Positions 17,699-49,941 of a stretch of 64,000 nucleotides of DNA are shown here, one piece after another (within the stretch, counting starts at the first letter, position 1; each line of letters opens with the position of its first letter). The stretch comes from Anaerolineae bacterium. GTDB taxonomy: Bacteria; Chloroflexota; Anaerolineae; JACRMK01. The notes under the pieces are model-generated. The model saw only the letters and a list, made by a program, of their open reading frames with translations. It searched no databases and was not told where the DNA came from. The stretch is from the NCBI GenBank assembly GCA_038198935.1, contig JBBPZQ010000103.1, forward strand, positions 25,649 to 89,648, in the 5' to 3' direction. A program made the translations under genes and the position numbers.

Positions 17699-17884
17699 TA
17701 TGTCAAGCAGAATGTTTGTGCTAATGCGGCGGACGCTGCGTGTGCGTCGGGACAGCCTACAGATGCGGCTACGGTGATGCTAGGCGACAATTTGTGTGGT
17801 CGACCCGTTTGACACGGTTGCTACACTGAATGAGTAGATTGAGCCTTGTGCTGTCCGTTTCGGTTTGCCGCAAGGAGATGCGCA

Positions 17885-20275: not shown

Positions 20276-20294
20276 GAGCGGTCGTGCGAAAAGC

Positions 20295-20331
20295 AAATCG
20301 GGCCACCTGACGGTGGCCCGATTTCTTTTTG
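20295..20331 (+). terminator. Rho-independent terminator after the P-type ATPase
   Basis: AAATCGGGCCACC-TGA-CGGTGGCCCGATTT hairpin followed by CTTTTTG. Confidence 0.8.
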
Positions 20332-20353
20332 TAAATGTTGAAGACTTGTAAGG

Positions 20354-21151: not shown

Positions 21152-21256
21152 AGGTAGCACTCTCCTCTTGAGTAGTTGACCTGCAACGATCCTGACTGCG
21201 TGCTGAAAGTGGCGTGAGGTTATTTCGGCGCACCTCCTTTCGATTGTCGCCATCAA

Positions 21257-21361
21257 ACAAAAAGCGATGACCCGCGCGCAAACGCAAGTCACCGCTTCGT
21301 TCTTAGGCTTCCATCGCCGACGTACATGCAAATATTCTACATAGTTCAAAGCGTATTGCAA
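21257..21361 (-). promoter_or_regulatory. leader of the metalloprotease gene: promoter (TTGCAA-N16-TAGAAT), conserved box CATGTACGTCGGC, intrinsic terminator-like hairpin + U-run
   Basis: On the minus strand: -35 at 21356..21361, -10 at 21334..21339, box at 21316..21328, hairpin at 21264..21295 followed by TTTTTGT. Confidence 0.5.
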
Positions 21362-21432
21362 ATTTTCCGTTTAGGACTTGTGTACTATTGGACAATACAA
21401 AGCGGGCAACTCGTGAATTGCCCGCTCTTGTC

Positions 21433-23061
21433 CTATATACAACTGCTGAATTTGAACGAAACGATCCACGTGCTCCAGTTGAACGTGCCACTCGACTTTA
21501 GATACTCCGACGTGAACCAGAACGTGCAGTCGTCAACCGGATCAACGGTCATCGCGCTGTAGTCGCCCCAGCGGCTCAGGTTCGGCAGCTGTGAGCCGCC
21601 GCCCGGCTTTACGATCGTTTCTGCACCCATCGTGTTGAGCGCATCAGTCGCCGCGCGCCCCGTGTAGCGCAGTGACGGCAATACGCTGCTGGACGACGCG
21701 CTGTAGCCAAGTGCGATGTCGCCATTCTTGTCCATCGCGATACTGCCCATCCAGCGCGAGGTCGAATCGGGTGAGTACGTCCCTTGCTGATACACGACGG
21801 GCGTACCATTTGCCATCGTGTTGCCCGACGGATTGCGCAGTTCATACCAGCGCACACCCGTGACACTGCTGTGCTTGTTGCCGGAAATGGCAACAGAGTG
21901 ATTGACGACCAGCGATTCAACGCCGGCGCGATTGCGATAGGCGAGGCGATACATCAAGCGGTCGGCGAGCGAATCCAACTGCTGGCGCGTGTTGGGCTGC
22001 GGGATGCAGTTGCCGCCGCCACTGCACGCCGTATTGAACGCGGCGACGGGAATATTGGTGGGACCCGTGAGCGTGCTGTTCGCGCTGTTCGTCCAGTCCA
22101 CGTGGAACTTCCACAGGTTCAGCGAGTTGTTGGCGAAATTCATGAAGAAGTTCGGCGACCCGGTGGGCGGCGCCGTCGAGCCATCGAGATCGGACGGCAG
22201 CAGTCCGCCGTAAGCAGTGCTCAATTGGTAGCACTGCTGATTTGCCGAAGCGCCCGCGAGCATCGCGGTGCGATCAAACGCGCACACCTTCGAACCGGCG
22301 AATGTCTGCCCGTTGTTGAAGATGTTGTAAGAAATGTAGTAGCCGTCGGGCCACACGCCGAGCTTGGGATAGTCGTTGAACTGCGAGCCGTAGCTGAACG
22401 AGTAGCGGTTGTACGTGCCTGTTGCGTCGGAAGTCGTCGAAACAGCAACGCACTGCAAGTAGGGCAGTGTGGACACCGAGAACTGTGTCATGATCCAGCG
22501 CCCGGCAGCCTTGTCATATTGCACAATCGGGTCGCCGTCGTTGTTCGTCTCGCACGCGCCGCCAAAACCAGCCCACAGCGCATTGCCTGCCTTGGGGTAT
22601 CCAGCCAGTATCGCGCCCGTTGTCTTGTCGTAGACCGCAAACGCTGTGTTGACCCACTGCACGTACTGTGTCGCTCCGACTGCGCCGTTGGTGTCTGGCG
22701 GCGCGCAGTTGCAGGGATTGGAGGGCGTGTTACTCGTGTCGCCAATGCCGTCGAAGCTCAAAGCACCAGCCACGTTCACGACGGGCCCCGCTTGCGATTG
22801 CACCACCGGGTCATTCTCCGCATTCGACGCGCCATGCACGCCGAGAATGCGCAGCGGGCGTTCGGTTAAATTCCGCGCGCTCGGCGATGACGGCTGATTG
22901 CCGATTGGCCCCGACACATCGTGATGCACATTGGCGCTCACTTCGACTTGCGGCGCTTGCTCGTTCGGCTGCGCCAGCACGCTCTGTGCTGTCGAAGCGA
23001 TCACGACGAGCACGAGCGCCAATGCGAAAACTGCAAACCACTTCATGTTCTTGTAAGACAT
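21433..23061 (-). CDS. secreted hypothetical protein (Cys-containing, Asn/Thr/Ser-rich)
   Basis: 542 aa; signal peptide MKWFAVFALALVLVVIASTAQSVLA; AGGAGAG RBS; no recognisable family. Confidence 0.6.
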   Translation of the reverse strand: MSYKNMKWFAVFALALVLVVIASTAQSVLAQPNEQAPQVEVSANVHHDVSGPIGNQPSSPSARNLTERPLRILGVHGASNAENDPVVQSQAGPVVNVAGALSFDGIGDTSNTPSNPCNCAPPDTNGAVGATQYVQWVNTAFAVYDKTTGAILAGYPKAGNALWAGFGGACETNNDGDPIVQYDKAAGRWIMTQFSVSTLPYLQCVAVSTTSDATGTYNRYSFSYGSQFNDYPKLGVWPDGYYISYNIFNNGQTFAGSKVCAFDRTAMLAGASANQQCYQLSTAYGGLLPSDLDGSTAPPTGSPNFFMNFANNSLNLWKFHVDWTNSANSTLTGPTNIPVAAFNTACSGGGNCIPQPNTRQQLDSLADRLMYRLAYRNRAGVESLVVNHSVAISGNKHSSVTGVRWYELRNPSGNTMANGTPVVYQQGTYSPDSTSRWMGSIAMDKNGDIALGYSASSSSVLPSLRYTGRAATDALNTMGAETIVKPGGGSQLPNLSRWGDYSAMTVDPVDDCTFWFTSEYLKSSGTFNWSTWIVSFKFSSCI

Positions 23062-23206
23062 TCAACTCTCTCCTCTTGAACTGTCGGCAGTCATTCACCG
23101 CCGAAACTTACGTTGCCTTTGAACTCGCAACGCGCATGGGACAGCACGACGGGTGGTTCGTCGAAATACAATCAATTGGGAGTGGCGCCTCCTTACACTG
23201 GCGAGC

Positions 23207-23499: not shown

Positions 23500-25737
23500 T
23501 TAGCTTCGCGGTCCGCGGTCGCCGCCGCCACGGAATGGCGGACGTCCGCCACGATCTCCGCCGCGGTCGCCACCACCACGATAGCCGCCACCGTCACGTC
23601 CACCGCCAGAGCGCCCGCCACTGCTCGGCTTGCGGTCGGCATCACGCGCTTGCTCCGCCGTCCAGCCCGCCAGTACTGCCTGGCGCGACAAACGCACCTT
23701 GCCGGCCGGATCAATGTCAATCACCATCACCGTCAACTCGTCGCCGAGCTTCACGATGTCCTCGACGCGGTTCACGCGATAGTCGGCTAACTGCGAGATG
23801 TGTACCATGCCGTCCAGCCCGGGCAGAATCTCCACGAACGCGCCAAAGTCGGCGACGCGCGTGACCTTGCCCGTGTAAATGTCGCCGATCTTCGCGTCTT
23901 CGGTCATGGCGCGAATCTTCGCCTCGGCGGCCGCAGCACCCGCGCCGTCGGGCGACGAGATGAACACCGAGCCGTCGTCCTCCACGTCAATCTTCACCTT
24001 GAACTCTTCGATCATCGCGCGAATCGTCTTGCCGCCAGGCCCGATGACCTTGCCGATCTTCTCCGGATCAATCTTGACGACGGTCACGCGCGGCGCGTAC
24101 TGACTCATCTCTGCGCGCGGCTGGTTGATCGCCGCCAGCATCTTGTCCATGATGAACATGCGGCCCTCGCGCGCCTGCGCCAATGCTTGCGTCATGATGT
24201 CGGCACGCAATCCTTTGATCTTCATGTCCATCTGCAACGCGGTGATGCCCTTCGCGGTGCCCGCGACCTTGAAGTCCATATCGCCGAGCGCGTCTTCCAT
24301 GCCCTGAATGTCGGACAGCACGGCGTACTTGCCGTCGTCGCGCGTGACGAGTCCCATGGCGATGCCAGCGACAGGCGCTTTGATCTTCACGCCCGCGTCC
24401 ATGAGCGCCAGCGTGCTCGAGCACACCGACCCCATCGAGGTCGAGCCGTTCGACGAGAGCACTTCGGACACGACGCGCACGGTGTACGGAAAGTCTTGCT
24501 CGTCAGGAATCACATTGCGCAGTGCAGTCTCCGCCAGCGCGCCGTGGCCGATCTCGCGGCGGCGCGGTCCCCGCATCGGATACGCTTCGCCCGTGCTGAA
24601 CGGCGGGAAGTTGTAATGATGGATGTAGCGTTTCGATTCTTCGGGGCGCAGTCCGTCCAAGGATTGCTCTTCGCCCACGGTGCCGAGTGTGGCGATGGAC
24701 AGCACTTGCGTCTGGCCGCGCGTGAACAAGCCCGAACCGTGCGCACGCGGCGAGAGGCCGACCTCAGAGCTGATGGGGCGAATCTCTGTCAGGCCGCGTC
24801 CATCAGGGCGAATGCCCTTGTCGAGGATCGCATTACGGACTTCGGTCTTCATCGCCGCGTCGAAACCCGCTTTGACTTCGGCCGGGTCCAGATCGGACAG
24901 CGACGCTTTCAGGTTGTCTTCAATGGTGTCGAGCGCGGACTCGCGCGCTTCTTTCGAGAGCGATTGCGAGAGCACATCGGTGATGCGCGTGCCGAGTTTC
25001 GCGACGACGGCGTCATGCGCGTCGCTCTTCGCGGCGGCGGGGTAGCTCATCTTCGGCTTGCCCATCTCTTTGGCCATCTGGTTCTGCAACACGATGACAT
25101 TTTGGATCGCCTGGTGTCCGCTGTTGAGCGCATTCAGCATCACATCTTCGGGCACTTCGTTCGCGCCCGCTTCGACCATCAGGATCGCTTCGCTCGTGCC
25201 CGCCAAACGCAGGTCGAGTTGCGACTTTTCCATCTGGTCGGCGGTCGGGTTCATCACAAAAGCGCCGTCAATCATGCCGACGCGCACCGCGCCGATGGGG
25301 CCATAGAACGGGATACTGCTGATCATCAATGCGGCGGACGCGCCGATAATGGCGGGGATGTCGAGATAGTTTTGTACGTCGTAAGAGATGGTCGTGGCGA
25401 CGACTTGCACGTCGTTGCGGAAATCTTTGGGGAAGAGGGGCCGCAGCGGGCGGTCTATCAGACGGGCGACCAGGATCGCGGCTTCGCTCGGTCGGCCCTC
25501 GCGGCGGAAGAATGAGCCGGGGATGCGGCCTGCCGCGTAGAGCCTCTCTTCAAATTCGACCGACAGCGGGAAGAAATCAATGTCGGGACGCGCGCTTTTG
25601 CTGGCAGTGGCTGTGACGAGCACGACCGTGTCGCCGATGCGCACCGTCACCGCGCCGCCGGCCAGCTGTGCCAGCTTGCCCGTCGAGATAACAACGTCTT
25701 GTTCGCCAAGTTTGGCGGTATAAACTTTTTCGTCCAT
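23500..25737 (-). CDS. pnp: polyribonucleotide nucleotidyltransferase (PNPase) with Arg/Gly-rich C-terminal tail
   Basis: 745 aa; two RNase PH domains, KH and S1 domains, plus about 50 aa of RGG-type tail. Confidence 0.95.
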
Positions 25738-26403: not shown

Positions 26404-26574
26404 GCGATTTGCGATTTGCCATTTCACTGTGGAGACATAACGCATAGAGCGCAGCGTGCCCGCCAACCGTATTCTGCTATTACGCCGATGAATCTTCCTC
26501 ATAGCCGACCCAATCGCAATTCGCAATGAGTTTTGCAATTCGCAATTCGCAACACGCTTGTTATAATCAATTTC
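26404..26574. repeat. short direct-repeat array (GCGATTT x2; GCAATTCGCAAT x3-4) in the rpsO-iscS divergent intergenic region, ending in TGTTATAAT
   Basis: cgcgatttgcgatttgcc at 26404..26421; caatcgcaattcgcaatgagttttgcaattcgcaattcgcaac at 26511..26553; extended -10 TGTTATAAT at 26559..26567, 7 nt before the iscS ATG. Confidence 0.5.
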
Positions 26575-27855
26575 ATGGCGACCCGACGTTTTATCTATCT
26601 CGATCACGCGGCGACAACGCCCGTACATCCCGACGTATTAGCCGCGATGACGCCATATTTTACGGAAGAATTCGGGAACCCCGGCGGCTTGTACTCGCTC
26701 AGTCAGCGCGCGAAGGATGCGGTCGAAACGGCGCGGCGCGACGTGGCTCGCGTGCTCGGCTGCTCGCCGTCGGAAATCATTTTTACCAGCGGTGGCTCGG
26801 AGAGCGACAACCTTGCGATTAGGGGCGTAGCGTTTGCGGCTCGGCCCATGTTCCGCCACGGTGCGCGTGTCCGTCGCGACAACCCAGCCATTCGCGGTGC
26901 AGCGTTTGAGGCAATTACTCGCTCCTCCGCGCAGAAAGGAAGGGCAGCGACGGGGGTTCGCGGTCATCTCATCACTTCGACCATCGAGCATCACGCCGTC
27001 GAGAGCACCTGCCATCAACTGCGCGATCATTTTGGCTTCGAGGTGACTGAGGTTGGCGTGGACGCTTATGGCCAGGTTGATCCTGACGACGTGCGGAAGT
27101 CAATCAGGCCAAACACCATCGCGATCTCGATCATGTATGCGAACAACGAGGTCGGCACCATTCAGCCGCTTGCGGAAATTGGCAGCATCGCGCGCGAGTA
27201 CGGCATTCCGTTCCATACCGACGCAGTGCAGGCAGCTGCGTACTTGCCCGTCAACGTCAACGCGCTTAATGTTGACTTGCTCTCGCTCGGCGCACATAAG
27301 TTTTATGGACCCAAAGGCGTCGGCGTGCTGTACGTGCGCAAAGGTACGCCGCTTATGCCGACGCAGACTGGCGGCGGACACGAGAGCAATCGGCGCGCGG
27401 GCACCGAGAACGTGCCGTACATCGTCGGCTTAGCGAAGGCGCTCGAACTGACGCAAGCCAATCGCGAGCAAAACGTCGCGCTGCTCAATCCACTGCGCAC
27501 ACGATTGATTGACGGCGTGACCAGCACGATCGAGCGCTCGCAGCTCACGGGTCACCCGACCGAGCGGTTGCCGCACAATGCGAGTTTCGTCATCGAAGGT
27601 GTCGAGGCGGGCCCCGTCTTGCTCGCGCTTGACATGGCTGGTATCGCCGCGTCGTCGGGCTCCGCCTGCACATCGGCGGCGATGGAGCCAAGCCACGTGC
27701 TCAAGGCGATAGGCGTGCCGCGCAAACACTCGCACGGCGCGCTGCGTATGACGCTTGGCCCAGAGAACAAGATGGACGAGATGGATGTGGTGTTGGAGAC
27801 GGTGGCGGATGTGGTGGCGCGGTTGCGGAAGATGACGACACGGAGTACAGGATAA
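26575..27855 (+). CDS. iscS: cysteine desulfurase (NifS/IscS family, class V aminotransferase)
   Basis: Start MATRRFIYLDHAATTP; PLP-lysine region SLGAHKFYGPKGVGVLY; active-site SSGSACTS. Carries an extra insertion of about 24-33 aa near residues 80-130. Confidence 0.9.
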   Translation: MATRRFIYLDHAATTPVHPDVLAAMTPYFTEEFGNPGGLYSLSQRAKDAVETARRDVARVLGCSPSEIIFTSGGSESDNLAIRGVAFAARPMFRHGARVRRDNPAIRGAAFEAITRSSAQKGRAATGVRGHLITSTIEHHAVESTCHQLRDHFGFEVTEVGVDAYGQVDPDDVRKSIRPNTIAISIMYANNEVGTIQPLAEIGSIAREYGIPFHTDAVQAAAYLPVNVNALNVDLLSLGAHKFYGPKGVGVLYVRKGTPLMPTQTGGGHESNRRAGTENVPYIVGLAKALELTQANREQNVALLNPLRTRLIDGVTSTIERSQLTGHPTERLPHNASFVIEGVEAGPVLLALDMAGIAASSGSACTSAAMEPSHVLKAIGVPRKHSHGALRMTLGPENKMDEMDVVLETVADVVARLRKMTTRSTG

Positions 27856-27925
27856 GTTCTGCTTGCTGCTCACGATGGCGGGGTGTATGCATAGTTGTAT
27901 TGACGTGAATCAGAAAGGTGGACAG

Positions 27926-30613
27926 ATGACTCAGGAATCCTCAAGAAAAATCGAAACAAGCAACCAAAGTGGCGGTATCAACATCAGCGGCGGCAATATC
28001 ATTAGTGTTGAAGGGGATTTTGTCGGGCGTGATCAGATCGTCAAGATTTCTGCTCCTGTTGCCATACACCAACTACCACCTGATTCGACTAACTTCATCG
28101 GTCGAGAAGAGGAAGTTAGCAAGGCACTCGCAATTCTGTCAACTAACATGGAAGCCCCTACAATTCTTATCTTCAACGGCAACGGGATGGGTGGGGTGGG
28201 TAAGACAGCGTTAGCTATACATATTGCTCATCAACTAATAGCGAGATACCCTGATAGTCAGCTGTTCGTGAATCTGCGTGGGGGAAGTGGTTCACCAATG
28301 AGTTCATCAGCGGCCATGGCCCATGTCATCAGATCATTTCACCCTGATGTGCGACTGCCTAACACTGTAGAGGATTTAACAGCGATCTATCGCAGTGTTT
28401 TGTACGGGCAGAGGATTCTGTTAATTCTCGATGACGCGGCAGATGCTGAGCAAGTGACCCCACTTCTCCCTAGTTCTTCATCGTGTGCGGTATTCATAAC
28501 CTCACGTAAACGCTTTGACCTGCCCGGCGTTCCCAGGGTTGATTTGGATGTGCTTTCGGCAGACGCTTCACGCGAGTTGCTGATGCGTTTGGACCCGCGC
28601 CTTCGTGATACCCCTGATATAGCTGCCCGAATTGCCTCTCTGTGTGGGCATTTGCCACTTGTCTTACGAATTGCCGGCTCTACCCTGAGAGCTAGGCCCC
28701 ATCTGATTCCAGCCGAATATGCCGGCGAATTGGCGGCAATAAGCCTCAGTTCACTTTCACAAGGGTCTGCTCACATCACCATCCAAGAGGTTTTCGACCT
28801 TAGTTACGGACAATTAAGCCCACAACTACAAGCAGCATGGGTTAAATTGGCTGTGTTCACATCTACGTTTGATCGCACGGCAGCGGCTGCTGTATGGAAC
28901 GTGGATGAAAGACAGACCAAGACGTGGCTAGACGAATTGGCGAACTCTAGCTTGATCAATCGGTACAATGAAACCCAACGTTATGCTCTACATCCCTTAT
29001 TGCTCGATTTCGCCTTGAGTTTCTCACCACAGTTTGATCTAACTGAAGCACATGAACGACACGCTCACTACTACCTCTCTGTAGCTCGCCAAGCTGGTAA
29101 ACTATACTTTGAGAGTGGAGAAGGGGTGCTGCGTGGTTTAGCTCTATATGACCAAGAGTGGCCGAACATTCAGTCAGCATTGACACGACTAGCTAAACAG
29201 GCCCCGGATAATTCCGTGGCTGCGCGGTTGTACTGCGATTACATTGACGCGAGTATTTATTACCTTGAACTTCGCCTGTCTCCAAAGGAACTAATCATGT
29301 GGTTGGAACGAGCAGTCGCCGCCGCTCGTTTATTAGGCGATAGACAGGCGGAAAGCAGCCACCTGAGCAACTTAGGCTTGAATTATTCAACACTAGGGGA
29401 AAGCCGTCAGGCCATAGAATATTACCAACAAGCGCTCACCATCGCGCGTGAAATAGGAGACAAACATGCCGAAAGTGTAGACCTAGTGAATCTTGGACAA
29501 GCGTATGCTACACTAGGTGAGATAAGGCATGGCATAGAGTTCTACACCGAAGCATTGCAAATAGCCAGAGAAATTGGAGATCGCCTCACAGAAAGCACAG
29601 TGCTGGATGGTTTGGGAGGGGCTTATTCTGCTCTAGGTGACTATCGGCGCGCCATTGAGTCCCATGAACAAGCATTACTAATTGCTCGTGCAATTGGAAA
29701 TAGACGAGGCGAAGGGAATATTCTCGGAAACCTAGGGGTTGCCTACGCCGCATTAGGCAATCTTCGCCACGCTATTGAGTTCTATGAACAGGCATTGATC
29801 ATTGCTCGCGAGATTGGTGATCGACGCAGCGAAAGTAACCAACTGGGCAGTTTAGGGAATGCTTATGCGGTCCTTGGTGAGGCTCACCACGCGATCGAAT
29901 ATTATGAACAAGCGTTACATATTGCGCGTGAATTGGGTGACCAAGTTAATCAAGGAGTCAATCTAGCAAATCTAGGAATAGCGTACACTCGTCTCGGGGA
30001 CATTCAACGCGCCTTTGAATTGTCTGAACAATCTCTGCTTATTGCACAGAGGACCGGCGACCGTCGAAGCGAAAGTAGCCGACTTGGTAATCTGGGAATG
30101 GCCTACGCATCACTAGGTGAAATACCCAATGCAATTCAATACTATGAGAAGGCGCTTGTCATCGCCCAGCAACTGGAGGATGCACGGTCTCTCGCTAACG
30201 TTTCGTTTGAGCTGGGCGTACTCTATGCCGAACATGATCGCTGGCACGACGGCCTCCGGTTGCTCGAACAGAGCCTTGCCATCCGTCGCCAATTCGACGA
30301 CCTCAACGCGCGCGCCGACACAATTTTTCAAATTGCTCGCACACACCACCTAATGAGTAATCTTGAAAATGCACGGGTACATTACCGCGATGCACTGCGC
30401 TTGTATCAACGGACCCATAACCAGCGCGGCATCGCCGCCTGCAAAAACGGTTTGGGCCGCCTGGCGATTCAGTTGGGCTTCAGTGCCGATGCGACACGGG
30501 AACTTGCTCAGGCGCACGAAATGTATGTTGAATTAGGAGACACGCAACGCGCCAGCGAGGTCGAAGAGGTTCTCCGGCTGGCTAATCACGCGAAGGAGAA
30601 ACAACCCGCATGA
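27926..30613 (+). CDS. STAND-family NTPase (NB-ARC-like P-loop) with C-terminal tetratricopeptide (TPR_12-type) repeat array
   Basis: AAAGGTGGA RBS; FIGREEE pre-Walker motif, Walker A GMGGVGKT, Walker B ILLILDD, about 10 TPR-like repeats (NLG.AY..LG....AIE.YEQAL.IAREIGDR). Local GC is visibly lower than the flanks. Confidence 0.8.
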   Translation: MTQESSRKIETSNQSGGINISGGNIISVEGDFVGRDQIVKISAPVAIHQLPPDSTNFIGREEEVSKALAILSTNMEAPTILIFNGNGMGGVGKTALAIHIAHQLIARYPDSQLFVNLRGGSGSPMSSSAAMAHVIRSFHPDVRLPNTVEDLTAIYRSVLYGQRILLILDDAADAEQVTPLLPSSSSCAVFITSRKRFDLPGVPRVDLDVLSADASRELLMRLDPRLRDTPDIAARIASLCGHLPLVLRIAGSTLRARPHLIPAEYAGELAAISLSSLSQGSAHITIQEVFDLSYGQLSPQLQAAWVKLAVFTSTFDRTAAAAVWNVDERQTKTWLDELANSSLINRYNETQRYALHPLLLDFALSFSPQFDLTEAHERHAHYYLSVARQAGKLYFESGEGVLRGLALYDQEWPNIQSALTRLAKQAPDNSVAARLYCDYIDASIYYLELRLSPKELIMWLERAVAAARLLGDRQAESSHLSNLGLNYSTLGESRQAIEYYQQALTIAREIGDKHAESVDLVNLGQAYATLGEIRHGIEFYTEALQIAREIGDRLTESTVLDGLGGAYSALGDYRRAIESHEQALLIARAIGNRRGEGNILGNLGVAYAALGNLRHAIEFYEQALIIAREIGDRRSESNQLGSLGNAYAVLGEAHHAIEYYEQALHIARELGDQVNQGVNLANLGIAYTRLGDIQRAFELSEQSLLIAQRTGDRRSESSRLGNLGMAYASLGEIPNAIQYYEKALVIAQQLEDARSLANVSFELGVLYAEHDRWHDGLRLLEQSLAIRRQFDDLNARADTIFQIARTHHLMSNLENARVHYRDALRLYQRTHNQRGIAACKNGLGRLAIQLGFSADATRELAQAHEMYVELGDTQRASEVEEVLRLANHAKEKQPA

Positions 30614-31881
30614 ACGAGGCAGACCGTCTTTGGGATGAACTGGACATCACCTACGCGCACTGGGGATTGAACGAGATTCCGTTTTCCGAAGTCCCGCCCT
30701 TGTTGCGCGAGTCGCAGTTGTCAGAGATTTTCACAGGCCGCACACAAGAATTGCGCGAGGTATTCAATCTGTTTCGCGGGCGCGAACGCAAACGCCTGTT
30801 TGTGTATGGCTGGGTCGGCATCGGCAAAACTGCCTTCATTCTTGAAGTGTTGAGCGTATTGCGCCGCCGAGCGAAAGATACATTAGCCGCGTACATCAGC
30901 CTGCCCCCAGAGACCGATTTGGCGACCGCGGCTCTGATCGCGCTCGCTCGCGAAATGGAAGACGACGAATGGGCGCAACACCAACTGAACCAGATGGGAT
31001 TGCGCCCGCGAACGCGCGCAGTCGAAAAAGAAACGACGGTGAAGGCTGGCTTAGCTGGCATGGGCGTCGAGACCAAAGAAGAAACCGTCCCGATTTCTCC
31101 GCCGCGTTTTCCTGCGCTGAGTTTTGAAGACCTATTGAAACGCGCGTTGCAGAAGTATCACCGCGTTGTCATTGCGATAGATGACCTCGACAAGCAAGAC
31201 CCGGCGCGCGTGCGCGAATTGCTGCGGAACGATCAGGGAATGCTCAAGGGCGGCGCTTGGTTCATGCTCACGGGGCATCCATCAGGCTTGACGCGCGATA
31301 TTGTAACGCGCGAACTGGGGTTGTTCGATCTCGCTATCGAGTTGAAGAAACTGGATCAACCCACAACCTATCGGATGCTGATCAACTACCTCAATAGCGC
31401 GCGTCCACACAATGCGCGGCGCGACCACGAAGATCCGCTTTCAGTCCGCCCCTTCACGCCTGAAACTGCGCGTATTCTTTGCGAACGGTCAGATGGGGTG
31501 CCACGTTGGCTCAATCGGCTGGGCAGTTATGTTTTGCTCAAGGCGGCTGAACTTCACGCCGACATCATCACTCCCGATGTGTTGCAGCACGGATTAGAGT
31601 ATGCCGATCAACAGTTGCGCGGACAAACAGGGCTGACGCTTGAAGATCGCTATGTGCTTGAGCTGGTGTTAGAGAAAGGCACTTTCTCAGATGACTCCGC
31701 AACACTGGATGATCTTGAACACCTCAAGGTTAAAGAGTTCAACGAGGTCATGCCGATCCTAGAGAAACTGGTGCAACTCGATCTGTTGCGTCGCGTGCCG
31801 ACCGAACGCGCAACGGAGTATGCGCCCACGCCGATGGTGTCAGGCAAGAGCGAATCGTCTTCTGAAATCGCGCATGACTAA
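30610..31881 (+). CDS. AAA+/STAND-like ATPase (AAA_16 / Orc1-Cdc6-like P-loop NTPase)
   Basis: 4-nt ATGA overlap with the upstream gene; FTGRTQEL motif, Walker A GWVGIGKT, Walker B VVIAIDDLD. Confidence 0.7.
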   Translation: MNEADRLWDELDITYAHWGLNEIPFSEVPPLLRESQLSEIFTGRTQELREVFNLFRGRERKRLFVYGWVGIGKTAFILEVLSVLRRRAKDTLAAYISLPPETDLATAALIALAREMEDDEWAQHQLNQMGLRPRTRAVEKETTVKAGLAGMGVETKEETVPISPPRFPALSFEDLLKRALQKYHRVVIAIDDLDKQDPARVRELLRNDQGMLKGGAWFMLTGHPSGLTRDIVTRELGLFDLAIELKKLDQPTTYRMLINYLNSARPHNARRDHEDPLSVRPFTPETARILCERSDGVPRWLNRLGSYVLLKAAELHADIITPDVLQHGLEYADQQLRGQTGLTLEDRYVLELVLEKGTFSDDSATLDDLEHLKVKEFNEVMPILEKLVQLDLLRRVPTERATEYAPTPMVSGKSESSSEIAHD

Positions 31882-31933
31882 CCATTTGCAACACACCACT
31901 TCGCGTCCCGAGCCTGTCGAAGGGCGCCCCCGT

Positions 31934-31985
31934 GTCGTCGTCGCCCTCAGCGGCAGAGTGGATAGTTCGAGCGTTGCCCACTGCT
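31934..31985 (+). pseudogene. degenerate duplicate of the mnmA 5' end (encodes RVVVALSGRVDSSSVA)
   Basis: About 52 bp at roughly 85% identity to mnmA codons 6-22 at 32348..32400 (KVVVALSGGVDSSTTA). Confidence 0.55.
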
Positions 31986-32031
31986 CGCCTAACAGGAGCA
32001 GGATCAAGTAGATTCCGATTGGAGGCTTATC

Positions 32032-32319
32032 GTGATGAATCCAACGATGACGACAACTAATATCCTGACATTAGAAGAAGTCGCCGAGTATCTGCGACTA
32101 CCAAAAGAGACCGTAGAGCGTCAGGCATTGCGCGGTCAAATTCCAGGACGGCGTATCGAAGATACTTGGCGTTTCCTCAAAACGGCGATTGACGAATGGT
32201 TGCGTAGCCACGACAGCCGCGCGATTTTGTTACAGCAAGCAGGCGCATTAGCAGACGATGAGTCTTTGCCGCAACTGGTCGAGACGATTTACGTAGGGCG
32301 CGGACATTGCGCGTCGTGA
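32032..32319 (+). CDS. helix-turn-helix DNA-binding protein, excisionase/HTH_17 family
   Basis: 95 aa; ILTLEEVAEYLRLPKETVERQALRGQIPGRRI...WRF matches excisionase-family DNA-binding domains. Confidence 0.6.
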   Translation: MMNPTMTTTNILTLEEVAEYLRLPKETVERQALRGQIPGRRIEDTWRFLKTAIDEWLRSHDSRAILLQQAGALADDESLPQLVETIYVGRGHCAS

Positions 32320-32329
32320 ACTGAATGGA

Positions 32330-33445
32330 TTGAAGATGAGCACGAAAGTCGTCGTCGCCCTCAGCGGCGGCGTGGACAGTTCGACAACCGCCGCGCTGCT
32401 CGTCGAGCGCGGTTATGATGTCGTCGGCGTGATGATGCGCCTGTGGGCGGGCGTGGGGCCCGACGGCGGCGAGTACAATCGCTGCTGCTCGCCCGAAGCC
32501 GTCGCCGACGCGCGCTCGGTGTGCGTGCGCCTCGGCATTCCGTTTCACTTACTGAACTTTGAAGCGCCGTTCAAGCAATACGTCGTGGATTTCTTTCTCG
32601 ACGGCTACACGCGCGGCGTCACGCCGAATCCGTGTGTCGAATGCAATCGGCACGTCAAGTTCGACGCGCTGCTCAAGCAGGCGCTCGCGCTCGGCGCGGA
32701 TTATCTGGCGACAGGTCACTACGCGCGTGTGCAAACACTTCAAGATGAAAGCGTTCAGTTGTTGAAGGGTGTTGATCCCCTGAAGGATCAATCGTATGCG
32801 CTCTGCATGTTGACGCAGGCGCAACTCTCGCGTTCGATGTTTCCGCTCGGCGAGTTCACGAAGCAGCAGGTGCGGCAGATGGCGCGCGAGCGCAACATCA
32901 TCGTCGCCGAGAAGAGCGAGAGTCAGGAATTGTGTTTCGTGCAGAAAGACTATCGCGAGTTTGTGCAAGAGCAGCGCCCAGACGCGTTCGTGTCGGGCCC
33001 CATTCTCGATTTGCACGGCAATGTTGTAGGCGAGCACGATGGCTTGCCCGCGTACACGATTGGCCAGCGTAAGGGCTTGCATATACATCCTGAGCCGCAT
33101 CGAACGATGGCGGCCGGCGAGCCGCTGTATGTGGTTGACGTGGACGCTGCTCGCAATGCGCTGGTCGTTGGGCGCAAGCACCAGGTGTGGCAAGAGCACA
33201 TGCTTGTCACGCACATTAACTGGATCAGCGGAGAAGCGCCGAGCGAGACGCTTGAAGTGAACGTGAAGATTCGCTACAAGAGTGAAGAAAAGTCCGCGCG
33301 CGTCGAGCCGTTGGCTGATGCGAGCGCGCGCGTGACATTCGCCCAGCCACAGCGTGCGATCACCCCCGGTCAAGCAGCCGTGTTCTATCGTGGCGACGCT
33401 TGTCTGGGCGGCGGCATCATCACGCGCATGGGAGCGAGCCAATGA
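32330..33445 (+). CDS. mnmA: tRNA 2-thiouridine(34) synthase MnmA
   Basis: 371 aa; PP-loop VVVALSGGVDSS, catalytic Cys motifs (NPCVECN, ELCF). Confidence 0.9.
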   Translation: MKMSTKVVVALSGGVDSSTTAALLVERGYDVVGVMMRLWAGVGPDGGEYNRCCSPEAVADARSVCVRLGIPFHLLNFEAPFKQYVVDFFLDGYTRGVTPNPCVECNRHVKFDALLKQALALGADYLATGHYARVQTLQDESVQLLKGVDPLKDQSYALCMLTQAQLSRSMFPLGEFTKQQVRQMARERNIIVAEKSESQELCFVQKDYREFVQEQRPDAFVSGPILDLHGNVVGEHDGLPAYTIGQRKGLHIHPEPHRTMAAGEPLYVVDVDAARNALVVGRKHQVWQEHMLVTHINWISGEAPSETLEVNVKIRYKSEEKSARVEPLADASARVTFAQPQRAITPGQAAVFYRGDACLGGGIITRMGASQ

Positions 33446-36222: not shown

Positions 36223-38010
36223 CTATTGCAGAAGATGTAATTGCTTACCTGTCGCGGATTCCCAGATCCGTGCGCTGCCATCATGGCTTGCCGTCGCTAC
36301 CGTCCTGCCATCTGGGCTCCAGGCTACCATGTTCACTGCGCCTTGATGCCCGCGCAAGACCGCGACGACTTGTCCGGAATTGGCGTCCCAAATTTGCGGT
36401 TCTTGGGCTGTCAGCACTCGGCTGGTTGCCACCCGTTGCCCGTTCGGGCTCCACGCCACATCGAAACTCTCTCCAGACGTTTTCAACGTCAACAGAATTT
36501 CACCCCTGGAGGGCTCCCAAACGCGCACCTCATTAATGGCAGCGGTGGCGATCCGCTTCCCCTCAGGACTCCAGACCGCATCAAAAACGCGATCGTTGTG
36601 CGGTAAGATGATAAGATTTTTCCCGCTGTTGGGATCCCACACCCGTGCCGTCTGATCGTCACTGGCTGTGAGCAGGCGCTGTCCGTCGGGACTCCAACTT
36701 ACCATGCGCACGCCTAACAAGTGCCCTGCAAGAACCGCCAAAGGCTTGCCCGTGTCGGCATCCCATACCCGTGCTGTCAGATCCAAACTTGCGGTGGCAA
36801 GGCGCTTCCCATCTGGGCTCCATGCCACCCGACTGACTAGAATTTGATGCCCCGTCAACGTTGAGAGCAGTTGGCCCGTCTGTGCGTCCCACACCCGCGC
36901 CCACACCCGCGCCCGCACATCCAAAGTCGCGGTCGCGAGGCGATCGCCTTTTGGGCTCCACGTGATCTGATTGACTTTCCCAAAGTCTGTCACTCCCAAC
37001 GTCAGCAGCAACTTGCCGCTGCCCACGTCCCATACACGCGAAACGTCGCTGGCGGTGGCGAGTTGTTTTCCATCGGGACTCCACTCCACGTTGAAAATCG
37101 CGGCCTTGCGAGTACCAAAAGTTTCGGAGAGAGTTCGTAGTCGCTTACCCGAGACGGAGTCCCACACATACGCCACGCCGTCGGAGTCCGCAGTTGCCAA
37201 CTGTGTGCCATCGGGACTCCATGCCACGCTGGTTACGCGTGGAAGGTTCGGCACGGCGCTTGCCGCGGGTGTTGGCGCAGCGGTGGTGCGGCTGATGGGC
37301 GTGAGGGTGGGCGCAACTGCCGCCGTCACAGTTAACAACATCTGATCATTCCACTTCCCGCCTGTCAATTCGCCTAAATCGGGAAAGCCGCTGTCCAGCA
37401 CTGCTCGTGTGGCTGGACTCGGCGCCGCAGGCGGCACGCCATCCGGCACGACGATCTGCTGCCCCGACACCGCCTCAACGGTCACGCCCGCAGCTGCTGC
37501 CTCCACGCTTCCCGTTTTGACGATTGTCCAGGTACGGTGCAAGCGCACATCGTAATTAACGAAGAACTCGGTGCCAGTGGCGGTGATCGTGACGCCACCA
37601 GGCGTTTGAAATTGTATGCGCTGTGCTGCGCGCGCTTGTGGCGTGATGGTGTTGAACACGCTGCCATTATTCAGCAGGAACTGAATGAGCAGCGGCGCGC
37701 TAGGGTCAACTCCTGCGTACTTCAGTTGCACCTCAGAATCATGGAAGATGTCCACCACGAGCAGGTCGGCAAACCTCAACAGTGCTTCGCCTTGAGGCTT
37801 CACATCAATCTTGTCACCTTGGCGCGCGACACGCGTAGAGCCGACGGGGATCGTTTCGCCTGCTGCGGATTGCGGCTGGAAAACGACTTCGGCCTTTTGC
37901 GTTTCCAGCGTCGCATCGGTTTCGGATGAAGATGGCCCCAATGGGCTAATCGGACCACATGCGAACAGCAATAGCAGCATCGCGAACAGTCGGCGATTAC
38001 GCGCGTGCAT
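36223..38010 (-). CDS. WD40-repeat lipoprotein with N-terminal non-WD domain
   Basis: Signal peptide with lipobox LLLFAC; at least 8 WD40 repeats (AWSPDG.QLATAS.D.TARVWD). Confidence 0.8.
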   Translation of the reverse strand: MHARNRRLFAMLLLLFACGPISPLGPSSSETDATLETQKAEVVFQPQSAAGETIPVGSTRVARQGDKIDVKPQGEALLRFADLLVVDIFHDSEVQLKYAGVDPSAPLLIQFLLNNGSVFNTITPQARAAQRIQFQTPGGVTITATGTEFFVNYDVRLHRTWTIVKTGSVEAAAAGVTVEAVSGQQIVVPDGVPPAAPSPATRAVLDSGFPDLGELTGGKWNDQMLLTVTAAVAPTLTPISRTTAAPTPAASAVPNLPRVTSVAWSPDGTQLATADSDGVAYVWDSVSGKRLRTLSETFGTRKAAIFNVEWSPDGKQLATASDVSRVWDVGSGKLLLTLGVTDFGKVNQITWSPKGDRLATATLDVRARVWARVWDAQTGQLLSTLTGHQILVSRVAWSPDGKRLATASLDLTARVWDADTGKPLAVLAGHLLGVRMVSWSPDGQRLLTASDDQTARVWDPNSGKNLIILPHNDRVFDAVWSPEGKRIATAAINEVRVWEPSRGEILLTLKTSGESFDVAWSPNGQRVATSRVLTAQEPQIWDANSGQVVAVLRGHQGAVNMVAWSPDGRTVATASHDGSARIWESATGKQLHLLQ

Positions 38011-40273
38011 CGGCTACCTCCCGTCGAGATGCTTCATCCGCCGACGCAAAAACATAAAAGCCCAGCCCGCCCAACGCGCCGATGCTGAGACCGCAGATCA
38101 ATGCCAACGCGAAATTGTTCGACCAAAGATCGCTGAACAACGCCGACAAGATGGCTGCGAGCGCGGTACCCATTGGGATGAACAACAATCGCTGCGTTCG
38201 CGCGCGCGCCAACGCGGCGCTCACACCCAAGCCAGCACCAAGCAGCGCACCAACGATTAGGTGTCCCGCGTTCAGCGGGGGAGCAGCTACGGCAACATAG
38301 AGCGCAAAGGCGATAGCGCTCAGGGGCGCGCAGACGAGTAGCATAGCCAACCATTTGCGTTTGGGTTGTGCTTGCCAACGCCACAAACACAGCCCCATAC
38401 CGAAACCGATCGCCGCGCCGATTGGGAACATGGTGAGAAACGCCAGTGCCACAACGCCGATCAGCAAATTCGGTAAGAGCGCAGCCGACTTGAAGTATGT
38501 GAGCAATGCGAAGCCGAGCGCAAAACCTAAGCCAACGCCTAAAGCGCCGCCGCCGGCTTGCTTCAAGAAGCGAAACTGCCTGTCTCTCTCATCGGCTAGC
38601 GCGTCCGATACCGCGCGCCTCTTTTCGATTTCACTTTCGCGCGCTTGTCTCTCTTCGTTCTGTTGCTGCTCGCGCTCGTGTGCTGCCTTGCTTGCGTCCA
38701 AGAAGGCTCGCGCCGAATCGTCCAGCGTGTCCTCGTGCTGTGCGCGCCACTGCATCGCGCCATCTAACTGGTACCCGTGATACAAGAAACTTTCGTTTTG
38801 ATCTGACTGCTCCCATTCTTGCGCGCGCTCGTTGAGGCGGCGCTTCACCCGCTCATCAGCGCGGCGGTCGTCGAGCCACGTTCGCAGCAAGTCCCATTCG
38901 CGGATGAGCGCTTCGTGTGCCACCTCGACCGTATCGGACTCCGCGATGACTAATCTCGCCTCCACCAGCATCGTTAGCACCGCATCCACACTTGGTTGAT
39001 CCGCACGGTGTGGAGACAATGAGCGGCGGGCGACCCGTCTCCGTGTATCGGGCGCGTCATCTCGCATCTCCGTCAAACTCACGAAGATGCCGCGCGCGAT
39101 GCGCTGCTGCTCGTCGCGCAATTGCAAATAGACAGCCGTAGCACTTTGTGCAATCGCGCCCCGCACGCCGCCTGCCTCGTGATAGCCTTGCAGCGTCAGT
39201 TGTCGCCCCCGCCGACGCTTCCACGTTTCGAGCAGCGCGTGAGAGAGCAAGGGCAGAGCACCAGGCTCATGGCCCACATCGGTGAGCAGCAAGTCCACCA
39301 AGCCTGCCTCAAACTGCCAGTTGCCCTCTCGCGCAGGTTGCTCGATGGCGCGGCGCAGTTCGTCGGGCTGCATTGCGTTGAGGTTGTACTGGTGCTGCGG
39401 CAGCACGCGGAAGAAGTCGGGGAAGACCGCGCACTGCTCGTAGAAGTCGGCGCGAACGGTGAGCACGACGCGCACTGGCCCCGCCGTGTCGTCCGCGACG
39501 GCATGGAGCAAGTTGTCCACGAACGCCTTGCGCTCGATGGGCTCTTTGCACGCGGTGAACACTTCCTCGAACTGGTCCACGACGAGCAGCAGTCGCTCGC
39601 CGCCATCCTGCTTGAGCGCGCGCGACGCGGCTAGGTCGAGGCTGCGCGCGTCGTGCGCGAGGTCGTCTATCAGCGTCGCCTGCGCGGTGACGGATTCGGA
39701 CGCGCGCGTGAGTGATGCCGCGAGTTCTTTCAGTGGATGCTCGGTCGGTTTGATGAGGTGCAGTTGCCAGCGTGGGCTGCCGTCGGGCATGACGAAGTGC
39801 TGCGGCTTGTCGGGATGCATAGCGGCGACGAGACCTGCGCGCACTACCGACGATTTGCCGCTGCCCGACGCGCCGACGACGGCGAGCAAGCGCTGCTCGC
39901 GCACATGGGCGACCAATTTGGCGGTGACCGCTTCGCGGCCGAAGAACAGCGGCGCATCCGCCACGTCGAAGTAGAGTAAGCCTTTGAACGGCGGCTCGCC
40001 GGGCGCGGGTTCGTCGGATTCAGCAGCGGCTGGCGCAGCCCGCTCACCAAAAATGACAGTCGCGCCCTCTCCAACGTTATAGATGTCGCGGATCACCTTG
40101 TCACGCCCGACAACATCTCCGCCGGCACGAACATGGCCGCTGCTGACGTTCACACCACCCGATTGGCTGGTGGTGGACCCACCCGCGGCGGAATTCGTCG
40201 GGGTATCTGCGCTGGGTTCATCGTTTGCGTTCGCACTCACGAGCTTTCTCCTGTCGAGCATCGTATGCCTCAC
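37997..40273 (-). CDS. STAND-type P-loop NTPase with N-terminal Gly-rich motif, coiled-coil and C-terminal multi-pass transmembrane domain
   Basis: FFGREAV pre-Walker motif, Walker A GASGSGKSS, Walker B LLLVVDQFEE, Glu/Arg-rich coiled coil, about 6 hydrophobic helices at the C-terminus; overlaps the WD40 gene by 14 nt. Confidence 0.7.
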   Translation of the reverse strand: MRHTMLDRRKLVSANANDEPSADTPTNSAAGGSTTSQSGGVNVSSGHVRAGGDVVGRDKVIRDIYNVGEGATVIFGERAAPAAAESDEPAPGEPPFKGLLYFDVADAPLFFGREAVTAKLVAHVREQRLLAVVGASGSGKSSVVRAGLVAAMHPDKPQHFVMPDGSPRWQLHLIKPTEHPLKELAASLTRASESVTAQATLIDDLAHDARSLDLAASRALKQDGGERLLLVVDQFEEVFTACKEPIERKAFVDNLLHAVADDTAGPVRVVLTVRADFYEQCAVFPDFFRVLPQHQYNLNAMQPDELRRAIEQPAREGNWQFEAGLVDLLLTDVGHEPGALPLLSHALLETWKRRRGRQLTLQGYHEAGGVRGAIAQSATAVYLQLRDEQQRIARGIFVSLTEMRDDAPDTRRRVARRSLSPHRADQPSVDAVLTMLVEARLVIAESDTVEVAHEALIREWDLLRTWLDDRRADERVKRRLNERAQEWEQSDQNESFLYHGYQLDGAMQWRAQHEDTLDDSARAFLDASKAAHEREQQQNEERQARESEIEKRRAVSDALADERDRQFRFLKQAGGGALGVGLGFALGFALLTYFKSAALLPNLLIGVVALAFLTMFPIGAAIGFGMGLCLWRWQAQPKRKWLAMLLVCAPLSAIAFALYVAVAAPPLNAGHLIVGALLGAGLGVSAALARARTQRLLFIPMGTALAAILSALFSDLWSNNFALALICGLSIGALGGLGFYVFASADEASRREVADARA

Positions 40274-40396
40274 CGGTCAACAGTCGTTGCGCGCTATGAT
40301 ACTGCTTTCCAAACGTGGCTGCAACCAAAACGCGCACCCTTGCTGCTCAGGTGCGCTTGTTCCTTGAAGACGTACTGAAGAATGTGAGACTCAATG

Positions 40397-40868
40397 CTAA
40401 TCCGGCACTACCTCCCACATTGGAAGCAATTGCTCCAGCGATTCCTTCTGCTCGTCGGGCAACGTCACGAACAGCCCTTTCGCTTCAACAGCGACTGAAT
40501 CATCCGCGAGGCGAATCTCGCCGCTGCCGCTCATGCCGTGCCGACTCAGTTTGTCCACGCGACCGATCACGGTGAGCGGCTGGCCAATCGGCACGGGTTT
40601 CAAGAAGCGCAGTTCGAGTTTCGCCGTCATCATCCACTGTTCGCGGCCCGCCGTCATCGAAGCGCGGCCAATCGTCTCATCGAGCAGTGCCGTCGCGATG
40701 CCGCCGTGCAGCACGCCGGGATACCCTTGATGCTGTTCCTCTGGCGTGAAGCGCACGACCACGCTGCCGTCGTCTTGCTCGTAGAAAAAAGTCTTGAGTC
40801 CGATCGGATTGTGCATCCCGCAGATGAAACACATCTGCGAGTTGGGTTGTTTGCGAGTGATGTCCATG
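40397..40868 (-). CDS. PaaI-family hotdog-fold thioesterase
   Basis: Start MDITRK; FICGMHNPIGL...GVLHGGIATALLDETIG motifs. Confidence 0.75.
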
Positions 40869-40886
40869 TGAAAGTGAAACGAAAAA

Positions 40887-40962
40887 GAAATCACCAAGAT
40901 ACCAAGACACAAAGAAGTGTTCGGAATCTTTGTGTCTTGGTGTCTTGGTGTCTTGGTGATTT
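40887..40962. repeat. intergenic hairpin with tandem-repeated arms (ACCAAGA / TGTCTTGG x3)
   Basis: aaatcaccaagataccaagacacaaag...ctttgtgtcttggtgtcttggtgtcttggtgattt. Confidence 0.7.
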
Positions 40963-41767
40963 AATAGATTTGTTTCTGCTTCTTGCGCCGCTTCTCTTTT
41001 TTGCTGACGGGCTGCGATGGCGTCTCGTCGGCAGGCTCATCATCGCTCGATACAGCGTCGGCTTGCGGCGTGATCGCATCAGCCAGCGCGCGATACATCG
41101 CGCTCGACAGTGCGGGCGTCGTGTGTCGCTGCAAGTAGGACTTCAAACCATTGAGCGGCATGATGTGCTCTGCCTGCTCAGGCACTTGCAATTCGACCTC
41201 CGGTTTCGTGAACACGATCAAGGGCTTCACGGGCGCGTCCGCACCTTCGCCGTTCGGCTTCAACCATTTTTGCAACCGAGCGATTTGGGATTGCGCTTCG
41301 GCCGTCGGGTTGCCCAAGCCGCCGTGCCGCCAATCGTGCCACACGCGGCTGAGCGAGAACGGCTGTCGCCACTGCTTGCCGTCGAAACTGACAAGTCCCG
41401 TTTCGTCTTTTATCACGATCACGTGCAGACCCGTCGGTGTGAGCAAGACGTGTTCCGCAGGTGTGTAGTAGTTGATCAGACGATAGCGCTTGTCCAATCC
41501 CTTCAACACCTTCTCCAGTCGCTGATCGTCGCGCGGCTCGATCTGCCAACGCTCTGCCAGCCGTCCGCCGATGGTCGCCACAATCGTGCCGACGATCAGC
41601 GACACGTAGGAGAGCGCGATGTACTCTGGCGCCGTCAGCGTTGGATTGGCCAAGCCGCCGAGCGCGATGAACAAACCCGGCAGCATGATCGCCAGCCCGC
41701 CGAGGCTCGCGTACTTTGCGAACTTAGTTTTGCGATCAATTTGTGATTGGTTGGTGTAAGTGATCAT
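40961..41767 (-). CDS. NERD-domain protein with N-terminal TM helices
   Basis: 268 aa; NERD-like core (RYRLINYYTPAEHVLLTPTGLHVIVIKDETG) and KKEKRRKK tail. Confidence 0.6.
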   Translation of the reverse strand: MITYTNQSQIDRKTKFAKYASLGGLAIMLPGLFIALGGLANPTLTAPEYIALSYVSLIVGTIVATIGGRLAERWQIEPRDDQRLEKVLKGLDKRYRLINYYTPAEHVLLTPTGLHVIVIKDETGLVSFDGKQWRQPFSLSRVWHDWRHGGLGNPTAEAQSQIARLQKWLKPNGEGADAPVKPLIVFTKPEVELQVPEQAEHIMPLNGLKSYLQRHTTPALSSAMYRALADAITPQADAVSSDDEPADETPSQPVSKKEKRRKKQKQIY

Positions 41768-49829: not shown

Positions 49830-49941
49830 TTGACATCTCCATCATCGGATGTTATATTGTGTTCGAGCGGTCTCGTAAGTCCTGGTGTCACTGGCTCCAC
49901 ATTTGGGAGTCCCACTCCGTCCAAACGGTCTTCAGTGATCG

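Follow-up and report, generated by a model that had tools for sequence, protein, structure and literature searches.

Results

The duplicated 5' end of mnmA

The DNA analysed here is a 64,000-nt stretch of the genome of an Anaerolineae bacterium (contig JBBPZQ010000103.1, assembly GCA_038198935.1), hereafter the window, and the subject of this study is mnmA, the gene for tRNA 2-thiouridine(34) synthase, together with the DNA inserted upstream of it. From an iscS-like cysteine desulfurase gene through mnmA, all genes are co-oriented: the iscS-like gene is followed by an NB-ARC/TPR gene, an AAA_16 gene, a degenerate copy of the mnmA 5' end, a small gene of the HTH_17 family, and the intact mnmA. 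An earlier interpretation made from the letters alone (the sequence-only reading) regarded the HTH_17 gene as excisionase-like and the whole as a probably decayed integrative element. The comparisons reported below indicate that the locus is very probably the relic of a toxin-antitoxin (TA) cassette insertion, with the HTH_17 gene encoding a putative orphan antitoxin.

Two exact copies of the 21-mer GTCGTCGTCGCCCTCAGCGGC, and no more, are present in the window (31934-31954 and 32348-32368); two matches were obtained in none of 100 dinucleotide-preserving shuffles. The repeat extends without gaps over 37 nt (92% identity), and with one 1-nt gap 31934-31987 aligns with 32348-32402 at 45 of 55 positions. 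The Smith-Waterman score of the upstream copy against the mnmA 5' end was 33, compared with best null scores of 18 (1000 shuffles) and 19 (824 other window segments, both strands), which places the similarity well beyond chance in a formal alignment. The degenerate mnmA copy described in the sequence-only reading was therefore confirmed. It had been assigned to codons 6-22; with the ATG at 32336 taken as the start, 31934-31987 corresponds to codons 5 to ~22, a trivial difference, and the ATG lies 348 bp downstream of its end. The right-hand copy comprises the first ~67 nt of mnmA (32345-32402). As had also been claimed, the HTH_17 gene lies between the two copies (Pfam PF12728, E=7.7e-13).

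On this alignment, 31931-31987 preserves the first ~22 mnmA codons as a non-coding relic, and the relic and the live mnmA 5' end are, by the same comparison, direct repeats bracketing inserted DNA. The relic is clearly decaying. Its PP-loop motif is broken (SGRVDSS), 1 nt has been deleted, and over 48 nt it differs from the clade consensus at 13 positions, compared with 2 for the homologous relic in the related genome L039 described below and 4 for the live copy of that genome. The live mnmA of the window remains full length with all three domains, and its product aligns full-length to orthologs (73-80% amino acid identity); the target gene has been reconstituted. The leader between the relic and the HTH_17 gene aligns with L039 7244-7291 at ~59% identity, with a conserved ATTCYGAT(T)GGAGG stretch. 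No significant conserved hairpin or RNA structure was detected in the relic or the leader (fold z-scores from +1.4 to -1.4).

A better-preserved locus in a related genome

Close relatives were found by protein search and contig look-ups; a metagenome scan with MnmA yielded no close relatives on useful contigs. A better-preserved version of the locus is present in L039, a Chloroflexota metagenome-assembled genome (MAG; GCA_030157145.1) whose MnmA is 77-78% identical to that of the window, and in its Logan assembly (L040). The gene order in L039 is the iscS-like gene, a different cargo, an mnmA relic, an HTH_17 gene (95 aa), a PIN gene (139 aa), and mnmA. The cargo consists of two DUF5678 genes, a retropepsin-like gene, and an open reading frame (ORF) resembling a gene fragment. 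The L039 relic is 80 nt long, has its own ATG, reads MVKRVVVALSGGVDSSTTAA, and then diverges to a stop that overlaps the ribosome-binding site of the cassette. It is preceded by an AATTYGC-type motif, like that upstream of the native mnmA of L043 and L096. Together with the live 5' end it forms an 80-nt direct repeat (7181-7260 and 7995-8074; 80% identical).

The two loci were aligned by blastn. Window 31931-32305 matches L039 7196-7562 (79% identity, colinear), and window 32307-33426 matches L039 7972-9067 (75% identity). In L039 the HTH_17 gene (7292-7579) and the PIN gene (7579-7998) overlap by 1 nt, and 2 nt separate the stop codon of PIN from the ATG of mnmA. A distant homolog ends in LRVVNWVD*, matching the LRVVHWMD* C-terminus of the L039 PIN protein, and the pattern LRVV(H/N)W(M/V)D* is found in loci L085-L088; the cassette therefore ends at its own stop codon. 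No integrase was found among the L039 gene calls.

A Logan assembly of the window organism (L001), which is independent, encodes proteins identical across the region (tblastn, 100%) and likewise carries the relic in the equivalent position. This structure, and the homologous one in L039 and L040, shows that the arrangement is not an assembly artefact.

The AATTCGC heptad was also noted elsewhere. Heptad repeats lie upstream of the window iscS-like gene (26512-26552) with an inverted partner at ~26405-26422, and the motif occurs at L043 1760-1806 and L096 5951-5975 (native mnmA upstream regions) and at L039 7160-7186 (upstream of the relic). The heptads could be a lineage-specific regulatory or repeat element.

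Identity of the HTH_17 gene and loss of its partner

Compared with L039, the window lacks 409 nt (L039 7563-7971), comprising the last 17 nt of the antitoxin gene and 393 of the 420 nt of the PIN gene (~94%). The window antitoxin ORF consequently reads into the final 27 nt of PIN, stops at 32317-32319, and ends 16 nt before the co-oriented mnmA. No other PIN remnant was found in the window by tblastn. An adjacent antitoxin/toxin pair, present in L039 and in L085-L088, is thus missing from the window, where the toxin is deleted. In a further locus with the same HTH_17 family (L084 3852-4263), the PIN partner is reduced to its first 38 codons, and these two independent losses indicate that an orphan antitoxin left after toxin loss recurs in the HTH_17/PIN family.

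The window HTH_17 protein is 88-89% identical to its L039 ortholog. About 770 homologs of 90-126 aa were retrieved at E <= 1e-5; the best 120 of these are 66-89% identical and include proteins that their sources label as KSB3, Chloroflexota, and Deltaproteobacteria. In L086-L088, and in L085 by tblastn, the HTH_17 gene is followed by a 139-aa PIN gene with a 1-nt overlap in an unrelated neighbourhood. The L039 PIN protein matches Pfam PF01850; its match to the NCBIfam VapC models (E=2.9e-14) falls below their equivalog cut-offs. Its plasmid homologs (37-39% identity) are annotated as VapC family toxins. The tail pattern LLQQAGALADDE.LP.L...IY..RGR of the HTH_17 protein is common to distant homologs. 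The protein also passes the NCBIfam domain model TIGR01764 'excise' with 37.9 bits (cut-off 28.8). Taken together, the PIN partner, the VapC similarity, the fold-level character of the 'excise' match, and the conserved tail argue for a vapBC-type antitoxin and not an excisionase. The excisionase assignment of the sequence-only reading was therefore not upheld, since the L039 ortholog directly precedes a PIN/VapC gene and the same pair is found elsewhere without an integrase.

Between the window and L039, the HTH_17 gene shows 88% amino acid identity but 57% identity at 4-fold degenerate sites, which points to purifying selection over most of the history of the antitoxin. Its product in the window is most likely a co-transcribed, still translated DNA-binding protein with no toxin partner in view. 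Its role may be that of a repressor acting locally, or of an anti-addiction factor that counters related VapC toxins encoded elsewhere. MerR/Xis-like HTH antitoxins paired with PIN toxins were reportedly catalogued by Makarova, Wolf and Koonin in 2009. A literature search retrieved no paper on HTH_17 antitoxins paired with PIN, nor on an attachment (att) site at the mnmA 5' end.

The ancestral junction and the inserted DNA

Empty sites were found at loci L041/42, L043/44, L089-91, L092, and L093-95, which represent five related lineages (MnmA 73-80% identical). In these relatives mnmA is unduplicated and abutted by the iscS-like gene, whose end ranges from 68 bp upstream of the mnmA start to a 4-nt overlap with it. 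The iscS-like gene also directly precedes mnmA in more distant Chloroflexota; judged by this conservation, it is the ancestral immediate upstream neighbour of mnmA. Synteny downstream of mnmA (two small ORFs, ytxH, and yjeF) is likewise kept in the relatives. The comparison with relatives thus bore out the geometry proposed by the sequence-only reading, that of an insertion into the 5' end of a gene, with direct repeats, an intact live gene, and empty sites.

Since the iscS-like gene abuts mnmA in the relatives, window 27856-32335 (4.5 kb) is inserted DNA, and it holds the NB-ARC/TPR gene, the AAA_16 gene, the mnmA relic, and the HTH_17 gene (Table 1). The sequence-only reading had not recognised the full 4.5 kb separating the iscS-like gene from mnmA as an insertion. 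The GC content at third codon positions is 0.46 for the NB-ARC/TPR gene, 0.63 for the AAA_16 gene, and 0.52 for the HTH_17 gene, compared with 0.72-0.78 for native genes. The NB-ARC/TPR and AAA_16 block is absent from all relatives, L039 having other cargo in that place. Tandem accretion with a third att-like copy at the iscS-like stop codon was considered and rejected: 27856-27990 scored <=10 against native spacers, mnmA 5' ends, and both relics. As there is no third repeat at the iscS-like end, this block represents an insertion event of its own, specific to the lineage and placed between the iscS-like gene and the relic, and not a product of tandem accretion. PADLOC returned generic TPR matches only for the two genes, which are possibly an unclassified conflict-system pair. 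Counts of promoter and terminator signals between the iscS-like gene and mnmA were no higher than in shuffled sequence.

Table 1. Features between the iscS-like gene and mnmA in the window.
Feature	Position	Strand	Evidence and remarks
Class-V aminotransferase cysteine desulfurase (IscS/NifS-like)	26575..27855	+	Pfam Aminotran_5, E=1e-75
NB-ARC and TPR STAND-type protein	27875-30613	+	Pfam
AAA_16 ATPase	30610-31881	+	Pfam; 4-nt overlap with the NB-ARC/TPR gene
mnmA 5' relic (pseudogene fragment), left direct repeat	31931..31987	+	Codons 4 to ~22; homologous to the L039 relic 7196-7260
Degenerate tail and cassette leader	31988..32034	+	Shine-Dalgarno GGAGG at 32021-32025, 9 nt before the HTH_17 ATG
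Putative orphan VapB-like antitoxin	32035..32319	+	HTH_17 at residues 12-60; C-terminal tail of ~35 aa
Deletion junction (32305/32307), last 27 nt of PIN, and 2-nt spacer before mnmA	32305..32335	+	blastn against L039
Intact mnmA (tRNA 2-thiouridine(34) synthase)	32336..33445	+	Pfam tRNA_Me_trans with M and C domains

History and distribution of the cassette

A concatenated tree was built from the iscS-like gene, mnmA, and three downstream genes. In this tree L092, an empty-site locus, is the sister of the window with 100% bootstrap support, and L039 lies outside that pair. The MnmA-only tree, which carries no support values, groups the empty-site locus L093 with L039; in the concatenated tree the support is 38%. 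A recent transfer linking the window and L039 cassettes was rejected, because the cassette (57% identity at 4-fold degenerate sites) is as diverged as the flanks (54%). The patchy distribution fits an old gain followed by several precise losses, two independent gains, or an old recombinational transfer. Precise loss could come about through recombination of one 80-nt repeat with the other, which would leave a clean empty site.

The window mnmA itself appears mildly mosaic. Its first ~380 nt (32336-32720) are 91% identical to L043 and 84% to the sister L092; its 3' third is 66% identical to L092, and the genes downstream are 78% identical to L092. This may reflect an old recombination tract ending in mnmA, although the signal is weak.

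Recurrence of the duplication and of insertions at the junction

Among 89 fetched loci with an mnmA 5' end, upstream self-duplications of that end were found in three organisms only: the window organism, L039 (with L040), and L034, a Candidatus Saccharibacteria MAG (CAYPVQ010000022.1). In L034 the duplicated segment (6672-6730 and ~9992-10050) runs from the mnmA ATG to codon 19 at ~82% identity. The relic lies directly after a type IV secretion system coupling-protein gene, 3.3 kb upstream of the live mnmA. The 3.3-kb insert, which differs from that of the window, carries five unrelated small ORFs, namely an ArsR-type HTH gene and four without a confident Pfam match, and no integrase was found between the two mnmA copies.

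This independent duplication in Saccharibacteria hints at a hotspot. The further proposal that the mnmA start (ATG to codon ~20-25) is a conserved attachment site for integrase-less cassettes, inserted by a trans-acting recombinase and each regenerating the 5' end, seems unlikely to us. If true, it would mean that mini-elements mobilised in trans, of a family not described before, use an essential tRNA-modification gene as their target in more than one phylum. More generally, recurrence of mnmA 5' duplications in other phyla would speak for a specific insertion mechanism, and otherwise such duplications would be ordinary genome wear and tear.

The junction receives other DNA as well. A cassette of DUF5678 and retropepsin-like aspartic protease genes lies at the iscS-like/mnmA junction in L096-L099 (e.g. 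L096 5113-5906) and in L039 (5277-6583), with no mnmA duplication. From the arrangements compared here, the junction looks like a hotspot for small operon-embedded cassettes and STAND-type genes in this Chloroflexota clade.

Discussion

Nature of the upstream copy and of the HTH_17 gene

Two alternatives concern what the features are. The upstream copy might not be an mnmA relic at all, and could instead reflect chance, a fragment of another PP-loop ATPase paralog, an assembly chimera, or a functional small ORF; the SGGVDSS PP-loop motif is common to several enzyme families, and the copy is in frame with, and spanned by, a 63-codon mechanical ORF (31820-32011), as the sequence-only reading had correctly observed. 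That ORF overlaps the 3' end of the AAA_16 gene, has no Pfam match, was not called as a gene in L001, and its motif is hit by non-synonymous changes and a frameshift relative to mnmA. The nucleotide match to mnmA is also far above every null, the colinear homology with the L039 relic includes the ATG of mnmA and a native-like upstream motif, and each of the two organisms is represented by two independent assemblies. We therefore regard this alternative as hardly credible. A somewhat better case can be made that the HTH_17 protein is an excisionase (a recombination directionality factor) belonging to a decayed element once targeted to the start of mnmA, from which the integrase and all else have been lost: the 'excise' model is passed, many homologs have been named 'excisionase family DNA binding protein' by JGI, and neither the att-like direct repeats nor the reconstitution of the target gene is in doubt. 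Against this, TIGR01764 is a fold-level domain model that defines no functional equivalog, the intact downstream partner is always a PIN/VapC toxin gene overlapping by 1 nt and never an integrase, a conserved and antitoxin-like C-terminal tail of ~35 aa extends beyond the HTH, and an integrase was found neither in the window or L039 nor around the homologs in L084-L088. An excisionase is thus very unlikely.

Mechanism of insertion

Under the reading preferred here, a two-gene cassette of the vapBC type would have inserted into the mnmA 5' end within an operon headed by the iscS-like gene. The insertion would have duplicated roughly positions -4 to +74 of mnmA, which would explain how mnmA kept a working start codon and its N-terminus. 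A later deletion of ~409 bp removed the toxin and joined the antitoxin ORF to the 27 nt that remain of PIN. The insertion itself was quite possibly, though we propose it tentatively, a Campbell-type single crossover at an att-like identity segment of 60-80 nt in the mnmA 5' end. Its recombinase would have been supplied in trans or have disappeared since, leaving a remnant like a cis-mobilizable element (CIME) that was stabilised by the TA module. Two independent events on ~60-80 nt of mnmA, together with the near-native L039 relic, argue for such a targeted event.

Several observations weigh against a site-specific event of this kind. No integrase, transposase, or resolvase was found in the 50 window ORFs scanned (nearly all >=200 aa), and no such recombinase domain was present in the L039 gene calls or in L034. 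The statement in the sequence-only reading that the locus has no integrase was accordingly borne out; of its decayed integrative element, the insertion geometry stands, while the element as such can only be presumed, with no integrase or transposase domain in the window, L039, or L034. The insert is ORF-tight, its leader being 31 nt long and its end falling on the PIN stop codon, and leaves little room for classical attP arm sites. Other members of the TA family (L084-L088) are without a flanking target duplication, and the iscS-like/mnmA junction also collects cassettes without duplication (DUF5678 with retropepsin-like, L096-99). Viral contigs contained neither the exact mnmA-core 23-mer nor the HTH_17 gene, and searches of the cassette DNA against plasmids returned nothing, only distant VapC homologs being found on plasmids. 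The distribution is patchy, too, in that two non-sister lineages are occupied and the sister of one is empty. The same relic and cassette could therefore be explained with no site-specific recombinase at any stage. The mnmA start may have undergone a local tandem duplication that served as a neutral landing pad, or homology-facilitated illegitimate recombination may have occurred with a donor fragment in which another sequence was joined to mnmA ('X-mnmA'); RecA recombination, using either the conserved iscS-like and mnmA flanks or the two 80-nt repeats, would then account for spread and loss. This account agrees with the lack of a recombinase in any scanned occupied locus, the ORF-tight cassette boundaries, the other cassettes that the junction holds without duplication (DUF5678 with retropepsin-like in L096-99 and L039, NB-ARC/AAA_16 in the window), the mosaic appearance of mnmA (L043 91% versus L092 84%, then 66%), and the presence in the same genome of another in-frame local duplication of ~70 nt, in the iscS-like gene. 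It is harder to reconcile with the independent duplication of the same mnmA segment in another phylum, which makes two independent lineages among ~89 mnmA loci, or with an L039 relic far better preserved than a long-neutral fragment should be, and the mosaic signal is weak and near saturation. We consider a purely recombinational insertion possible and only somewhat less likely than the att-type event.

Two other origins were examined and set aside. A phage or plasmid origin of the cassette found no support in the viral-contig and plasmid DNA searches, which came back empty. A tRNA or other RNA gene as the integration target was rejected, because the window contains no tRNAs and its sole Rfam match lies far off (49864-49984).

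Comparison with known systems

The cassette resembles a VapBC type II TA system in that L039 and L085-88 carry two small co-oriented genes with a 1-nt overlap, the downstream one encoding a VapC-like PIN protein of 139 aa. An N-terminal HTH of the antitoxin is followed by a C-terminal tail that may bind the toxin, the HTH_17/PIN family is spread across phyla, and the toxin has been lost independently in the window and in L084. It differs in its antitoxin fold, which is HTH_17 (Xis/MerR-like) and not the classical AbrB or ribbon-helix-helix fold of VapB, and in a PIN protein that falls below the NCBIfam VapC equivalog cut-offs. In the window, with the toxin gone, the locus has ceased to be a TA system.

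Integrative elements are known at the 5' ends of protein genes, as with the SXT/R391 integrative and conjugative elements at prfC, and in Streptococcus pyogenes prophages the att duplications reach tens of bp of coding sequence. The mnmA locus shares with such elements and with CIMEs the direct repeats of target-gene 5' sequence that flank the insert, an intact target gene in a new upstream context, precise empty sites in relatives, and, in L039, a left copy that keeps the native upstream sequence. It differs in that mobility genes (integrase, relaxase, or others) were not found at any of the occupied loci, and in an insert of only ~0.74 kb (0.33 kb in the window) that is ORF-tight. A recombinase of its own is not required for a CIME. 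To our knowledge, no element targeting codons 1-25 of mnmA has been described. For Erysipelothrix, integration of mobile elements close to mnmA has been noted (PMC12785378).

With HTH_17/TIGR01764 excisionases the antitoxin shares the DNA-binding domain family, and this is why pipelines label its homologs 'excisionase family DNA binding protein'. It differs from them in its conserved partner, which is a PIN toxin and not an integrase, in the extra conserved C-terminal tail, and in that no att-bounded integrase element surrounds the HTH_17 gene. This labelling is an annotation trap: 'excisionase family' HTH_17 genes that belong to this widespread, strongly conserved, PIN-paired family should not be taken as a sign of an integrative element. 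The locus belongs to known kinds, namely a TA cassette, an orphan antitoxin, and an att-like target duplication, and the scar of a vapBC-type insertion into the mnmA 5' end followed by toxin loss is an ordinary kind of genomic scar. Its value lies in documenting a TA cassette inside a housekeeping operon (iscS-like gene and mnmA), with a scar that is still recognisable and a toxin that was later lost cleanly.

Other features of the window

A local, in-frame gain of ~70 nt, by duplication or insertion, lies in a variable loop of the iscS-like gene product (~26806-26912; DNLAIRGVAFAAR ... DNPAIRGAAFEAI) and makes that protein 24-36 aa longer than those of relatives.

Further insertions of other genes were noted at a distance from mnmA. 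Between yjeF and fabF lies a block at 36223-41746, a second lineage-specific STAND insertion nearby, which consists of a WD40-repeat protein gene (36223-38010, minus strand), an nSTAND1 NTPase gene (37997-40273, minus strand), and a 402-aa ORF of unknown function (40538-41746, plus strand). The corresponding space holds a 4HBT thioesterase gene and one other gene in L039 and L089, and a 4HBT gene with several small genes in L041. The lexA (16956-17627) and pnp (23500-25737) genes, neighbours in L089, are separated in the window by ~5.3 kb (17780-23100) with a heavy-metal P-type ATPase gene (17846-20275, plus strand) and ORFs without Pfam matches.

A DUF3800-III RNA (Rfam RF02962, 55.8 bits) is encoded on the plus strand at 49864-49984. 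Near it, at 50695-56584 on the minus strand, are ResIII/endonuclease, DUF3800, and N6/N4 DNA methylase genes that resemble a type III restriction-modification system.

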